From: Planctomycetota bacterium
GTDB lineage: Bacteria; Planctomycetota; SZUA-567; H5-PLA8
DNA: 64,000 nt
Assembly: GCA_045863855.1 (NCBI GenBank)
Contig: BTVV01000004.1
Span: 1 to 64,000, forward strand
Direction: 5' to 3'
The position numbers and the translations under genes were made by a program. The notes under the pieces were generated by a model. The model was not told the DNA's origin. It saw only the letters and a program-made list of their open reading frames with translations, and made no database searches. Positions 5,202 through 9,898 of this stretch are shown in pieces; within the stretch, counting starts at the first letter, position 1; every line of letters starts with the position of its first letter.

Positions 5202-6509
5202 TTAGTCCCCTGCGGCGCCTATACGCAGCTCGCCGGAATCGGGTTGAGGTTCCTGCGTACGCGGCGGGACAGGCCCCGCTCCGGCAGGAGCCGGAGTTGC
5301 GGGGGCTTGGGAGAAGAAGATGCGATCGACCTCCAAGCTCCTGAACGCGGTTTCGATTTTCCCCGTCTCCAGATTGACCGACAGGACCTGATACTTTCTC
5401 TGGCCGTAGCCATGGTATCCATAGTGGGTATAGGGATCGTCCACGGTGGCGCCTAGAAGTCCCGATACCAGGTACGCTTGTGTGCCTGAGGGATCCACGC
5501 CGGCCAATCGAAAGTGGTGCCAGTAAATCGAATGATGGTCCACAGAGGCGACCTTCTTCCAGGCGCCCGTGAGCACCTCCGGCTTAATCCAAAGGGTAGA
5601 TTCCAGCCGGTCCTCGGACAGGCGTTTTCCGTAGCAAAGCGCAACCACCCCTCGCCCGGCAGGCATCGGACAAAGACTCGGCGTTGGGTCCGGAGGCAAG
5701 GCCAAGGGCTTGGAGATTTTACCCGTCGCGTCAAAACAGTACAGATGATGGCTACTCGCGATCGCAAGCGTTCCGTCCGAAAGCGTGGTCATGCCGCTCC
5801 CGAACTGAATGTCGTATTGCGGGGTGAGCGGGATGCGGCCCATGCGCCCGGTTTTTAAGTCCAGCACTTGCAGTTCCGTGGCGGTGCGCTGACCGGCCAG
5901 TTGCTGAATCGACCACCAACGTTCGTTGACCGCGTCGTGTCCCCAGGCCATATGGCCCCATCCGCCCCATCCCCAGTTCGCGTACTGATGCCAACCGGGC
6001 AGTTGCCCCACCAAACGCTCCGCCCCGGACTTCAAATCCCGTTCGTAAATCTCCCGCATCTGGAGAACTTGGGCTGGGGACTTCCCTTTAGGCAACCGCT
6101 GCCGGCTTTCCAGATATACCTTGCTCCCGTCCGCGTTCATGCTTGCGCCGAGCAGCCGCAAATTCACACGCCCCAAGGCCGGGTCGGCCACTTCGACGAA
6201 GGGCTTGGCGAGCGGACCTATCGTGCGGACCGTCTTCTTATGCAGGTCGATCAGGTACAGTTTCCAGGCACCCGTTCCGTACTCGTCGTCCAGATCTTCA
6301 TGCGCACGCAGGACGAGTCCTTCCGAAGCGTTCAGGAAATCGTACACGCCCAGCGGCAGCCAGCGCCCTGGCGGCGCGTTGCCGGAGGGGGCCTCTCCGC
6401 CCCTGGCAAGAGGCGTTAAGCACAACACCCACACCACGGCCCATCGCCTCAGTAGCACAAACGCCTCCCGGGACGCCACTCCTGCGTCGTAGTCTCCAGG
6501 ACGTACCAA
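5202..6509 (-). CDS. Hypothetical exported protein, possibly beta-propeller-like
   Basis: Signal-like N-terminus (WAVVWVLCLTPLARG) and repeated (L/V)DLK(T/S)G/NLETG strand-turn motifs; start uncertain. Confidence 0.65.
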   Translation of the reverse strand: MVRPGDYDAGVASREAFVLLRRWAVVWVLCLTPLARGGEAPSGNAPPGRWLPLGVYDFLNASEGLVLRAHEDLDDEYGTGAWKLYLIDLHKKTVRTIGPLAKPFVEVADPALGRVNLRLLGASMNADGSKVYLESRQRLPKGKSPAQVLQMREIYERDLKSGAERLVGQLPGWHQYANWGWGGWGHMAWGHDAVNERWWSIQQLAGQRTATELQVLDLKTGRMGRIPLTPQYDIQFGSGMTTLSDGTLAIASSHHLYCFDATGKISKPLALPPDPTPSLCPMPAGRGVVALCYGKRLSEDRLESTLWIKPEVLTGAWKKVASVDHHSIYWHHFRLAGVDPSGTQAYLVSGLLGATVDDPYTHYGYHGYGQRKYQVLSVNLETGKIETAFRSLEVDRIFFSQAPATPAPAGAGPVPPRTQEPQPDSGELRIGAAGD

Positions 6510-6546
6510 GCCGAATTGGTGTGACCACCTGCCCCTCGCTGCGCTC

Positions 6547-6575
6547 TTGACCGCTCCCCCATCCTTCCTTACTAT
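6547..6575 (+). promoter_or_regulatory. Sigma70-type promoter for the leader-cysE/trpC unit
   Basis: TTGACC (6547-6552) - 17 nt - TACTAT (6570-6575). Confidence 0.6.
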
Positions 6576-6611
6576 GGTGCCCGCCTTTGTTTAGGAGCGT
6601 CCCCAAGCACT

Positions 6612-6722
6612 ATGCACGCCGTGGTTCTATCTCGTCTTCCTCGCCGCGCCGCGATTCTCGCGGTTGCCGGCACACGGGCAGGCTCCTGGCGGTCGATGCC
6701 GGGCTGTTGTTGCGCGCATTGA
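6612..6722 (+). CDS. Putative attenuator leader peptide (36 aa, ...GSWRSMPGCCCAH*)
   Basis: ATG 6612 with AGGAG at 6593-6597; Trp codon at 6687; tandem Cys codons TGT TGT TGC at 6705-6713; stop at 6720-6722; alternative internal ATG at 6696. Lies directly upstream of cysE. Confidence 0.7.
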   Translation: MHAVVLSRLPRRAAILAVAGTRAGSWRSMPGCCCAH

Positions 6723-6794
6723 TGGTCCCCCCTTGCGGGCCGAACGGCGGCCCGCGCCTGACGCGCAAAACAGCTCCCTAGGAATATCGACGCC
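6688..6794 (+). promoter_or_regulatory. Long RBS-sequestering stem-loop (translational attenuator)
   Basis: GGCGGTCGAT (6688-6697) pairs with ATCGACGCC (6786-6794, just before the ATG). GGGCTGTTGTTGCGCG (6701-6716) pairs with CGCGCAAAACAGCTC (6762-6776). Perfect inner hairpin GCGGGCCG/CGGCCCGC (6735-6755). The SD-like AGGA (6780-6783) is enclosed. Confidence 0.7.
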
Positions 6795-8375
6795 ATGGAA
6801 CTCCTCGAACGCATCCTGCACGGCTTTCTGCTCTTCGTTGCCGCGATGGCCCTTCTCAAGCTGGGTTTCGCGATTCTCGTCGCCTTCATGGCCGTCCTTT
6901 TTAAGCCGTCCCTGATCGGCAGCGTGCTGGCGGACTTGCGATGCATCCGAGAACGCGACCCGGCGGTGGAAGGTTGGATCGCGGCGCTCTTCTATCCCGG
7001 TTGGTGGGCGCTGGCGCTGCATAAGCTGATCGCGCATCCGCTGTACCGCATCGGCTTGCGCACGCCCGCGCGGCTGGCCAACTTCGGCGCGCGTTTCCTG
7101 ACCGGCACGGATATTCATCCCGGCGCGCAATTGGGCCAAGCGATCTTCATCGACCATGCGCACGGCGTCGTGATCGGTGAAACGGCGATCGTGGGCGACG
7201 GCGTCACCGTCCTCCATCAGGTCACTTTGGGCGGCACCGGCAAGGAACACGGCAAGCGCCATCCCACGGTGGAGGACGGAGTTCTGCTCAGCGCCGGATC
7301 CAAGGTGCTGGGCAATATCGTCATCGGCGCCGATGCCAAAATCGGCGCCGGCAGCGTCGTCGTAAAAGCCGTACCCGCCGAATCCACGGTCGTCGGCATC
7401 CCGGGGCGCATCGTCGCCACCGGCGGCAAGCGCCTCCCCGCCAAATCGCTCGACCAGACCGACCTGCCCGATCCGATCGTCGAACGCCTCGTGGCGCTGC
7501 AAGACGAACTCCGCGAATGGGAGCGCAAAGTGGAAGAAAAGAAGTCCAGCGGCGCGCGCTGGCCGAAGGCCGGTGAAGACGTGCTCGCCGAGATCGTGAC
7601 GCATAAGCATGCCGAAGTGGCCGAAGCGCGCGCGCGCGCGCCGCTTCCCGAACTGCGCAGTCAGCCCGGAGTGCGCGGTTCGCCGCGCGGCTTCGCCGCC
7701 GCTCTGCGCGGGCCGGGACTGCGGCTCATCGCAGAAATCAAGAAAGCCAGCCCTTCGGGCGGACTGCTGCGCGAAGACTTCGATCCGCAGGTCATCGCGC
7801 GCATCTACCAGGACGCGCACGCCTCGGCCCTCTCGGTGCTCACCGACCGAAAGTACTTCCAGGGCTCGCTCGAGTACCTGGCCCAGGTCCGCGCCGCCGT
7901 GGGCCTGCCGCTCTTGCGCAAAGATTTCGTGATCGACGAATACCAGATCGTCGAAGCCGCGCGCGCCGGCGCCGACGCGGTCCTGCTCATCGCCGCCTGC
8001 CTCGACGACGCCCAACTCAAGGGCTTCCGCGAAGCCGCCTCCGCCGAAGGGCTCGACGCGCTCGTCGAAGTCCACGACGAGGCCGAACTGGTCCGCGCGC
8101 TCCAGAGCGGCGCCGAGATCCTGGGCATCAACAATCGCAACCTCAAGACCCTCGAAACGAAACTCGAGACGACTTACAGGCTCGTCCGCGAACTCCCCTC
8201 CGACCGCAACGGGCTGCTCGTCGTCAGCGAGTCGGGGATCAAGACCGCCGAGGACACGCACCGCCTCATCGAAGCGGGGGTCAACGCCGTACTCATCGGC
8301 GAAACCTTCATGCGCGCGCCAGACATCGGCTCGAAGGTTCGCGAGATCATGGGGCATGGGGAGTACGCGATCTGA
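6795..8375 (+). CDS. cysE-trpC: Serine O-acetyltransferase / indole-3-glycerol-phosphate synthase fusion (CysE-TrpC)
   Basis: CysE motifs RERDPA, DIHPGA, FIDHAHGVVIGET, GKRHPT and hexapeptide repeats. From about 7575, TrpC motifs EIKKASPS, SVLTD, LRKDF, LVEVH, GINNRNL, SESG. One uninterrupted frame. Confidence 0.92.
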   Translation: MELLERILHGFLLFVAAMALLKLGFAILVAFMAVLFKPSLIGSVLADLRCIRERDPAVEGWIAALFYPGWWALALHKLIAHPLYRIGLRTPARLANFGARFLTGTDIHPGAQLGQAIFIDHAHGVVIGETAIVGDGVTVLHQVTLGGTGKEHGKRHPTVEDGVLLSAGSKVLGNIVIGADAKIGAGSVVVKAVPAESTVVGIPGRIVATGGKRLPAKSLDQTDLPDPIVERLVALQDELREWERKVEEKKSSGARWPKAGEDVLAEIVTHKHAEVAEARARAPLPELRSQPGVRGSPRGFAAALRGPGLRLIAEIKKASPSGGLLREDFDPQVIARIYQDAHASALSVLTDRKYFQGSLEYLAQVRAAVGLPLLRKDFVIDEYQIVEAARAGADAVLLIAACLDDAQLKGFREAASAEGLDALVEVHDEAELVRALQSGAEILGINNRNLKTLETKLETTYRLVRELPSDRNGLLVVSESGIKTAEDTHRLIEAGVNAVLIGETFMRAPDIGSKVREIMGHGEYAI

Positions 8376-8461
8376 GACGCGGCAGGCAACAGTCAAACGA
8401 GCGTGGGCCAGACAGGGCGCTCCGACGAACGGGTGGAACTCCACCGCGCACAGGGTCCGGC

Positions 8462-8491
8462 TTGGCGTCCTGCGGTCTTGCCGGTTAACAT
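8462..8491 (+). promoter_or_regulatory. Possible promoter giving a leaderless larC transcript
   Basis: TTGGCG-18 nt-TAACAT ending 6 nt before the ATG at 8498; no SD visible. Confidence 0.3.
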
Positions 8492-8497
8492 CGTGGC

Positions 8498-9898
8498 ATG
8501 GCAAAGCGCATTCTGTACCTCGATCCGTTCAGCGGCATCAGCGGCGATATGTTCCTCGCCAGCCTGCTCGACTTGGGCCTCGATCTGGCCCACCTCAAGC
8601 GCGAACTCGCCAAGCTAGGCGTCGGCGGCTATGAGCTGAAATCCTCGAAGACCCTGCGCGGCGTCATGGCCGCCACTCAGTTCGAAGTAATCGTGAGCCA
8701 CGATCCCGCCGTACATTCGCACGCATCCCAGCCCGAGCCTGCGCACAGCCATGGCCATGACCACGGTCATGCGCACGATCATGGCCACAGCCATAGTCAT
8801 GCCCACAGCCACGAACCCGCGCATACTCACACGCATCACGAGAACCACGGTCACGGCCATGACGCGCATCATCACCACGACGTTCACGCGCATGTTCACC
8901 GGCCATTCAAAGAGATTCGCAAGCTGATCGATGCCGCGGCGCTCTCGCCACGCGTGAAGGCGCAAAGCCTCCGCGCGTTCGAACTGCTGGCGGAAGTCGA
9001 AGGCCGTATGCACGGGCAAACAGTGGACGAGGTTCAGTTCCACGAGGTGGGCGGGTTGGACAGCATCGTCGATTTCGTCGGCGTCTGCATCGGGCTGGAG
9101 GCGCTGGGTGTGGACGAAGTGTTCTGCGGTCCGCTGGCGTTGGGGGGCGACGGCGCGCTGGGCGGATACGTCCAGTGCGCGCACGGGAAGCTGCCCGTGC
9201 CGGCCTTCGCGACGCTGGAACTGGCCAAAGGTCTGCCGCTGCGCCACGCCGGCGTGGACAAGGAACTCACCACGCCCACCGGCGCGGCGCTGGTCCAAGC
9301 GCTAGTGAAACCAGAACACAGCGGCCCACTGCCGAATTTGCAGGTAGAGCGGATCGGCTACGGCGCAGGCGCGCGCAACGACCCGAAGATTCCGATTCCG
9401 AACGTACTTCGGGCGGTGCTGGGTACGCGGGCTTCGAGCGAGACGGCATCCGCCGCCACGCCGGCAACGATCGTCGAACTGCAAGCCAACCTCGACGACG
9501 TTTCCGGGGAAACGCTAGGCTACGCCGCCGAAAAGCTCTTCGAGGCCGGCGCATTGGATGTTTTCTTCGTGCCCGTGCAGATGAAGAAAGGCCGCCCCGG
9601 CACGCTGTTGACGATACTCGCCGCGCCGGACCGCCAAGCCGACCTGCTGAACGTGCTCTTTCGCGAGACGACCACCTTCGGCGTGCGCTACGAACTCAAA
9701 TCCCGCGCGATCCTGGAACGGGAAACGGTCACGGTGGATACCCCGTGGGGCGATGTGCGCGTCAAGCTTGGCCGGTGGCAAGGCGCCACGGTGAGCGCGC
9801 ACCCCGAGTTCGAAGACTGCCGCAAGCTCGCCGAACGGCACGGGGTGCCGCTGCGCGCCGTCCAGGATGCCGCCCGCGCCGCCGCCGCGGATCTGTAG
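8498..9898 (+). CDS. larC: Nickel pincer cofactor nickel insertase LarC
   Basis: YLDPFSGISGDMFL, FHEVGGLDSIVD, CAHG.LPVPA, ELTTPTGAA, ANLDD, MKKGRPG, ETTTFGVR, PEFEDC, plus a His-rich insert. Confidence 0.93.
   Translation: MAKRILYLDPFSGISGDMFLASLLDLGLDLAHLKRELAKLGVGGYELKSSKTLRGVMAATQFEVIVSHDPAVHSHASQPEPAHSHGHDHGHAHDHGHSHSHAHSHEPAHTHTHHENHGHGHDAHHHHDVHAHVHRPFKEIRKLIDAAALSPRVKAQSLRAFELLAEVEGRMHGQTVDEVQFHEVGGLDSIVDFVGVCIGLEALGVDEVFCGPLALGGDGALGGYVQCAHGKLPVPAFATLELAKGLPLRHAGVDKELTTPTGAALVQALVKPEHSGPLPNLQVERIGYGAGARNDPKIPIPNVLRAVLGTRASSETASAATPATIVELQANLDDVSGETLGYAAEKLFEAGALDVFFVPVQMKKGRPGTLLTILAAPDRQADLLNVLFRETTTFGVRYELKSRAILERETVTVDTPWGDVRVKLGRWQGATVSAHPEFEDCRKLAERHGVPLRAVQDAARAAAADL

Follow-up and report, generated by a model that had tools for sequence, protein, structure and literature searches.

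The window analysed here, a 64,000-nucleotide stretch of a planctomycete genome (contig BTVV01000004.1), contains a gene in which cysE, encoding serine acetyltransferase, is fused to trpC, encoding indole-3-glycerol-phosphate synthase (IGPS). Upstream of the fusion lies a short open reading frame (ORF) with three consecutive Cys codons near its end. This leader, which probably senses cysteine through the ribosomes that translate it, is the subject of this work. The pertinent features, all on the + strand, are:

6547-6552 and 6570-6575, +: -35 and -10 boxes of a sigma70-type promoter, TTGACC-17-TACTAT (promoter scan)
6593-6597, +: Shine-Dalgarno (SD) sequence of the leader, AGGAG (sequence)
6612-6722, +: leader ORF (P0001), 36 codons with a terminal Cys run (ORF reading and 24 homologous or analogous leaders)
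6685-6703, +: local 7-bp hairpin, with the Trp codon in its 5' arm and the Met-Pro-Gly codons in its 3' arm (consensus fold)
6687-6689, +: lone Trp codon, at position -6 relative to the Cys run, predicted to pair with CCA at the cysE start (alignment, folding)
6696-6698, +: internal Met codon, at position -3 relative to the Cys run, putative Met sensor (ATG in 12 of 12 clade-A leaders)
6705-6713, +: Cys run TGT TGT TGC, putative main sensor (sequence, 24 leaders)
6735-6755, +: inner GC-rich spacer hairpin, 6735-6742/6748-6755, with no U-tract behind it (folding, clade A)
6762-6776, +: AC-rich arm predicted to pair with the Cys codons (folding)
6780-6799, +: cysE ribosome-binding site (RBS), with AGGA at 6780-6783 and ATG at 6795, predicted to be sequestered by 6684-6700 (folding)
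6795-8375, +: cysE-trpC fusion, 526 codons in one frame (profile and homology searches)
8361-8372, +: CysK-docking-like tail, [DE][YF]xI, the last four codons of the fusion (homologue C-termini)

The leader and its transcript

The promoter, the AGGAG and the 36-codon ORF are all present as an original prediction, made from the letters of the DNA, had described them. The promoter is the sole promoter-like site within positions 6000-9000 (0.3 expected by chance), and transcription is predicted to start at about 6581-6583. The leader ATG lies 36 nt downstream of the -10 box and behind an SD sequence (anti-SD duplex -7.3 kcal/mol), hence the leader is not leaderless. No U-tract terminator was found downstream of its stop in the window, a point on which the scan upholds the original prediction, and none was seen in the spacers of relatives. 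The only terminator-like match on the + strand, 6685-6703, lies inside the ORF, has the Cys codons as its tail, and does not stand out from chance (3 such matches vs 2.4 expected). An Rfam search of the window gave just two sub-threshold chance matches, upstream of the promoter, and no Rfam model matched loci L001, L003, L009, L031, L047 or L200 (the last a cysS locus). Nor was any family match found for the leader peptide. Leaders with three consecutive Cys codons are rare: among the 3560 upstream regions scanned in the source genome, whose 5399 genes were called by a purpose-written codon-statistics caller, there are three, one of which precedes cysE.

The evidence from RNA consists of assembled contigs, from RNA runs holding small shares. 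For a close relative, contigs from two studies begin at 6593 and 6595, and one extends to 8489, just short of larC. These are weak hints, in agreement with a transcript carrying both leader and fusion.

The fusion gene

The fusion protein (526 aa) consists of an N-terminal hydrophobic segment, a serine acetyltransferase domain (approximately aa 46-205), an IGPS domain (aa 264-517), and a tail ending in Tyr-Ala-Ile. The acetyltransferase half scores 203.1 against TIGR01172 (cut-off 210.65) and 184 against NF041874 (cut-off 150), matches 18 solved serine acetyltransferases at E<=1e-25, and conserves the DP, DIHP, DH and RHP motifs (mapped to E. coli residues by motif). The TrpC half matches PF00218 as a full domain (1-253 of 254) and scores 316 against NF001377 (cut-off 260). 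It is the genome's only cysE-like gene and its only IGPS gene. In the family to which it belongs, consisting of uncultured Planctomycetota, 16 of 17 genomes encode the fusion as a single frame and the remaining one has it in two pieces. At one locus, L024 (G006:C683), it is split over two frames behind an intact leader, owing to a frameshift, an assembly error or re-splitting. More distant genomes of the class carry it in 7 cases of 44.

About 105 of the 120 clusters listed carry both domains; the sources name one half only. No CysE-TrpC fusion was found in the literature searched (open-access PMC and bioRxiv). One cluster, P0083 (721 aa), combines CysS, hexapeptide and IGPS domains, and is either a fusion of CysS, CysE and TrpC or the product of a frameshifted call. 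Since a piece of CysS occurs in this cluster and cysS adjoins the fusion gene in distant relatives, a cysS-cysE-trpC gene string is the probable origin of the fusion. The N-terminal hydrophobic segment (6795-6905), probably a membrane anchor, is present in 58 of 59 close fusions and in 4 of 45 distant ones.

Conservation of the leader

A leader with a Cys run precedes the fusion at 24 of the 36 distinct family loci with upstream DNA (16 from genomes and 20 from metagenome contigs). The leader ORFs are 13-57 codons long and have 2-6 Cys codons at the end, with the stop 36-72 nt before cysE. Their N-terminal parts are unrelated, and all 24 are open from the first start through the Cys run, the frame being kept across insertions and deletions. 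In clade A, one of the two main clades, the third position varies at codons -5, -4 and -2. A promoter-like pair precedes 23 of the 24 (the automatic call was wrong for L006, where a separate reading corrected it, and missing for L051). Seventeen leaders have SD-led starts and seven are near-leaderless, starting 9 nt after the -10 box; the median anti-SD duplex for first starts scored as leadered (n=18) is -7.3 kcal/mol, vs -2.5 for background. That the frame, the Cys run, the position of the stop and the pairing are all conserved supports, at the level of sequence comparison, the Cys-sensing translational attenuator originally proposed. Of what that proposal expected to be conserved in homologues, the Cys run was found at the 24 loci and a compensatory pair in the local hairpin, but a Trp codon near the run in only 16 of the 24 leaders.

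Eight distant fusion loci, read by eye, have no leader. The survey did not extend to L055-L110 (56 distant loci from metagenomes) or L129-L190 (62 distant loci from genomes), nor to a second reading of L111-L128, which apparently repeat genomes already counted. Dropped before counting were L035 and L038 (both the same as L013), L040 (as L015), L041 (as L009), and L016, which has no upstream DNA and whose twin L054 was counted. On a quick tree the leader appears in both main clades, A and B, with several losses. In some of the losses the promoter and the leader SD persist, while the Cys run is deleted (L043, L054) or swapped for repeat-like DNA (L046, L048).

The Cys codons of the runs comprise 64 TGT and 24 TGC (73% UGU of 88), vs 2739 TGT and 19879 TGC in the genome as a whole (12% UGU). 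The two genes found for tRNA-Cys have only the GCA anticodon, so that UGU is the wobble codon. Wobble reading may sharpen the sensing, though pairing with AC-rich arms would also account for the UGU codons. When the zone from 10 codons before the run through the stop is set against the remainder of these ORFs, enrichment is confined to Cys (89 in the zone, 2 upstream), Met (27 and 4) and Trp (18 and 3).

Predicted structure and the effect of a stalled ribosome

In the window, the Cys codons are predicted to pair with the AC-rich arm through two helices, 6701-6708/6769-6776 and 6710-6716/6762-6768. The codons before them are predicted to cover the cysE start through 6684-6686/6797-6799, 6687-6691/6791-6795 and 6693-6698/6785-6790, with 6699-6700/6781-6782 taking the GG of AGGA. 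These helices agree within a base or two with the pairings of the original prediction (6701-6716 with 6762-6776, and 6688-6697 with the bases before the ATG). Most leaders are predicted to fold alike: an AC-rich arm, located 12-40 nt upstream of the cysE AUG, takes up the Cys codons, and the codons preceding these pair with the cysE SD and AUG. The fold of 6680-6802 has a z of -3.27 (1 of 200 shuffles as good), and the window's cognate leader/RBS duplex is stronger than 200 of 200 shuffles. Among 11 clade-A leaders, 82% of the cells of this long helix are paired, with a covariation score matched by 8 of 500 shuffles.

The long helix is less well conserved than two local hairpins. In the same 11 leaders, 6735-6755 has 92% of its cells paired and 2 pairs changed on both sides, and 6685-6703 has 91% paired and one compensatory pair. 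The latter hairpin, overlooked in the original prediction together with the internal Met codon, competes with the long helix by occupying the anti-AUG and anti-SD strands; when it is forced, the cost of opening the RBS in the window falls from 16.2 to 5.4 kcal/mol, at a folding price of 11.3 kcal/mol. By analogy with the trp leader, whose first hairpin is a pause hairpin, it may serve as such; alternatively, it may arise in the wake of a stalled ribosome and lengthen the open state.

The effect of stalling was modelled by making unavailable the footprint of the ribosome plus all RNA 5' of it. With a ribosome at the first Cys codon, the mean cost of opening the cysE site is lowered from 10.3 to 5.9 kcal/mol over the 24 leaders, and the drop exceeds 2 kcal/mol in 18 of them. 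In the window the cost is 13.3 kcal/mol, and a ribosome at Cys, Met, Trp or the stop brings it to 6.3, 6.0, 5.7 or 6.2, respectively.

Proposed mechanism and its difficulties

Anatomy, conservation and predicted pairing are what was observed; from these we infer that the leader is a cysteine-responsive, ribosome-mediated translational attenuator gauging charged tRNA-Cys, a reading to which we assign a probability of about 80%. According to the model, a constitutive promoter would yield an mRNA with a translated leader ORF. When Cys-tRNA is ample, the ribosome would cross the UGU-rich run fast and depart, whereupon the Cys codons would zip to the AC-rich arm and the 6-8 preceding codons would mask the SD and AUG of cysE-trpC (the OFF state, from which Rho polarity may ensue). 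When Cys-tRNA is scarce, the ribosome would linger on the run, covering both arms and freeing the cysE site (the ON state). A stall at the Met codon beside the run would uncover the same site, and the Trp codon could be a third input in some lineages.

Several observations weigh against this model. Twelve of the 36 family loci have no such leader. The tree is a quick one, used just to group lineages, and all codon and conservation counts are among kin and not independent; kindred sequences can also pass the covariation shuffle control without any structure. The spacing of 14 nt from AGGAG to the leader ATG is long, and the leader SD lies inside a predicted stem. A ribosome at the stop codon also frees the cysE site (mean 5.6 kcal/mol), from which it follows that the switch would depend on dwell time, not position. 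When only the footprint is masked, leaving the 5' RNA free to refold, the cost in the window goes from 13.1 to just 11.6 kcal/mol at the first Cys codon (9.5 at the second), and a drop of more than 2 kcal/mol at the first Cys is seen in just 3 of 10 leaders. The leader/RBS duplex beats shuffles (p<=0.05) in just 10 of 24 leaders, and the cognate partner is the best of all 24 in just 2. The RNAalifold consensus recovered the two local hairpins and not the long helix, and the whole of 6580-6830 folds at just z -1.68 (13 of 200 shuffles as good). Finally, in a small control of 16 promoter-preceded upstream ORFs (uORFs; the window's included), Met occurs in 6 and Trp in 6 within the last 15 codons. 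The folding support for the switch is moderate and model-dependent.

Met as a second input

An internal ATG lies near the run in 23 of the 24 leaders, at positions -1, -3, -5, -7, -8, -10 or +4. Met accounts for 27 of the 276 non-Cys codons near the run vs 4 of 345 upstream (p 8e-7); counted per lineage (ten), the figures are 12/111 vs 2/152 (p 0.001), and clade B alone gives a p of 0.0008. Among NTG codons, ATG makes up 27 of 35 near the run and 4 of 38 upstream. Off frame, ATG occurs near the run 0 and 2 times.

Perhaps the internal AUG is instead a second start (giving an 8-codon leader) or a mere pairing element, either of which would be compatible with the attenuator, and the chances of this seem to us about even. 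In clade A, the U and G of the AUG are base-paired both in the local hairpin, in 11 of 11 leaders, and in the OFF helix; in clade B, AUG-UGU prolongs a UG repeat whose pairing partner is a CA arm; and the window's internal AUG has an SD-like duplex of -6.5. However, the median SD strength of the 27 internal AUGs is -2.0, like background (-2.5). Also, the A of the AUG never changes although it sits in the hairpin loop, where the bases next to it do vary, and CTG, GTG or TTG would pair equally well but are scarce there. Four leaders have two such Met codons. That Met is a second input, giving combined Cys and Met sensing, we consider slightly short of an even bet.

A Met input would have a purpose if the sulfur of methionine came from cysteine, as seems to be so in the source genome (94% complete), where MetA and MetX found no match. 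A cluster elsewhere in that genome (G000:C17:65168-69849; L237) consists of a SAM-I riboswitch followed by genes for ThrC-like, sulfur-carrier-like (by eye) and MoeB-like proteins and a cysteine desulfurase. It resembles the MetM/MetO route as tabulated in PMC13759103 and is a candidate, on the basis of gene content, for an O-phosphohomoserine route to methionine.

Trp as an additional input

The original prediction had gone further: it proposed that the leader senses both Cys and Trp, in keeping with the two activities of the enzyme. A genuine Trp input would leave the attenuator a Cys sensor, and the idea has its logic: the fusion holds the sole IGPS, so a switch responding only to Cys could starve the cell of Trp, and one must ask how the cell keeps making Trp while such a switch is off. 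In its favor, Trp is enriched near the run, and a stall at the Trp codon is predicted by the masked model to open the window's site. TGG occurs 18 times in frame in the zone, in 16 of 24 leaders and at seven different positions, vs 2 and 1 times off frame and in 3 of 345 codons upstream. Position -6 in clade A is TGG in 9 of 12 leaders and GGG in 3, and two of the three without the -6 Trp carry one further down.

Against it, the zone has no Trp in 8 of 24 leaders, the enrichment is marginal (p 0.04 over ten lineages, 0.14 in clade B alone), and 6 of the 16 control uORFs have Trp as well. TGG is one step from TGY, and the two regained Trp codons are at positions where relatives have Cys. In two of the three leaders with GGG, the change from TGG is accompanied by CCG to CCC, retaining the hairpin pair when Trp is lost, so base pairing could explain the conservation of Trp in clade A equally well. 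Trp stalls are predicted to leave the site shut in L007, L024 (one of two) and L053, and the regions before trpE, trpD and trpB showed no Trp-Trp leader. Met is better supported than Trp as an extra input, and dual Cys/Trp sensing appears doubtful.

Transcriptional control and a functional peptide

It is possible, though improbable, that the Cys leader acts on transcription, either through Rho or through pausing or termination at the local hairpin and the UGUUGUU of the Cys codons. The genome encodes Rho, the conserved hairpin 6685-6703 has U-rich Cys codons behind it, and Rho has been proposed for actinobacterial cys leaders (PMC1262725). Also, an RNA contig identical to the window spans the leader alone (6624-6791), but it is just 168 nt long at a depth of 4.9, about one read pair. 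The spacer is short, structured, and devoid of an open C-rich tract, the terminator-like match has the chance-level standing given above, and the mycobacterial case, as reported in 10.1101/834739, was demonstrated to be translational. It is very unlikely that the ORF encodes a functional Cys-rich micropeptide or that a conserved RNA structure has an incidental frame: the core W-R-x-M-P-G-C-C is conserved at the residue level in clade A, but lengths and N-termini differ as described, no family match exists, the rare UGU is favored, the ORF always heads cysE, and the frame survives insertions and deletions.

Other cysteine leaders

The source genome has a second candidate Cys leader, about 170 nt before cysS (G000:C10, at 87057; L200; also L196 and L198). 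It has a promoter-like site and a 25-codon ORF ending Cys-Ala-Cys, whose Cys codons are predicted to form a 10-bp helix with the sequence immediately upstream of the cysS SD. The leader is near-identical in G002, and G005, without a cysE leader, has a Cys-Arg-Cys leader before cysS. In all, 3 of the 17 family loci examined have a Cys-ending leader before cysS. Neither Trp nor Met occurs close to the Cys codons in any of the three, which are too few to serve as a matched control for Trp and Met. Cys-Cys occurs near a stop at 1 of 21 cysK/sbp loci, within repeat-like DNA. Lastly, ATG TGT TGT TGT TGA (Met-Cys-Cys-Cys-stop) lies 42 nt before position 80677 of G000:C7, with a TIM-barrel-like gene downstream; no complementary arm was seen there, and the sequence may be due to chance.

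The tail of the fusion and its neighbours

Serine acetyltransferase tails ending in Ile bind the active site of CysK, and that of M. tuberculosis is DFSI (PMC9547175). The fusion has the same kind of C-terminal Ile peptide as the CysE of the cysteine synthase complex described in PMC9547175 and PMC6829319, but here it sits behind the whole TrpC barrel and not behind the acetyltransferase domain. A [YF]xI C-terminus is found in 52 of 59 close fusions vs 0 of 45 distant ones, and in 8 of the 59 it is DFSI itself. Of the 17 family genomes, 16 have a CysK. By its motif, the fusion likely docks on CysK; a complex prediction of CysK with the TrpC domain and tail scored 0.30 (mark 0.32), giving no verdict. 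The leader, the hydrophobic start and the tail all separate this family from the distant fusions.

Just 8 of the 5399 called genes of the source genome end in [YF]xI, and five of these encode sulfur-assimilation proteins: the fusion (window 8361-8372), CysH, an Rrf2/CymR-like regulator adjoining cysK, a SulP permease, and CysA (G000 coordinates, besides the window: C99:8688-9446, C3:128288-128746, C33:8548-10251 and C209:751-1821). In most family genomes, cysK (L214-L230 region) is directly preceded by a gene with a D[YF]xI-like end (by eye), probably the same Rrf2/CymR-like regulator. The shared motif is possibly a sign of a CysK-centred docking network broader than in the published accounts considered.

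Downstream of the fusion, a promoter-like TTGGCG-18-TAACAT within 8466-8500, missed by the promoter scan, ends 7 nt before the ATG of larC. From this arrangement, larC may have its own promoter and be leaderless. LarC carries a long His-rich insert.

Relation to known systems

The closest parallels are the mycobacterial polycysteine short ORFs Ms5788A and Rv2334A before cysK1-cysE, of which Ms5788A was tested by reporter and proteomics (10.1101/834739). Like them, the window's leader is a short ORF with a C-terminal Cys run (of three), a long stable duplex predicted to reach the downstream SD region, no intrinsic terminator, and a target in cysteine metabolism. Unlike them, it belongs to another phylum with no sequence kinship seen, it is SD-led (as are 17 of 24 leaders), its target is a CysE-TrpC fusion, and just one further candidate leader (that of cysS) occurs in the genome. 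Moreover, here the codons preceding the run cover the SD and AUG, and the Cys codons pair just 5' of the site. Met and Trp codons stand in frame beside the run. Because it is not leaderless and shows no kinship, the leader is not a member of the mycobacterial class, though it may well work in an analogous way.

Cys codons near the stop and cysteine genes as targets are also features of the leaders predicted in actinobacteria (PMC1262725) and of uORFC-8-2 before cysS in Rhodobacterales (PMC8632094). However, uORFC-8-2 ends in a U-tract terminator and the window's leader does not, and the actinobacterial study described no conserved hairpins and proposed Rho. The leader is thus distinct from classical transcription attenuators (of the trpL or uORFC-8-2 type), there being no U-tract terminator hairpin behind the ORF, and from T-boxes and other Rfam cis-regulators, there being no match to an Rfam model. 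Multivalent leaders, with codons of several amino acids adjoining in the control zone, are familiar from the thr and ilv operons of enterobacteria. Those leaders control transcription termination, while control here would be translational. Within open-access PMC and bioRxiv, we found no multivalent leader joining Cys with Met or Trp, no Cys leader in Planctomycetota, and no methionine-sensing stalling leader. The passages of PMC4833913 on leader genes of Planctomycetes treat them in bulk and do not mention cysteine.

If the attenuator operates as proposed, it would extend ribosome-based cysteine sensing, so far tested in mycobacteria, to the Planctomycetota. The 24 leaders are natural variants that differ in the presence of Trp (L005 has none), in the placing and number of Met codons (L053 has none and L033 two) and in being SD-led or near-leaderless; along with the 12 losses, they offer a panel for studying inputs as small as a single codon. 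A Met input, if true, would be notable, since the literature searched yielded no methionine leaders of the stalling type. The fullest reading, in which a terminator-free stalling switch with three inputs (Cys, Met and Trp) governs a fusion that docks on CysK via a tail behind TrpC, is an unlikely one. Were it true, the synthesis of sulfur amino acids and of tryptophan would be coupled at three levels: the mRNA leader, the enzyme and the complex.

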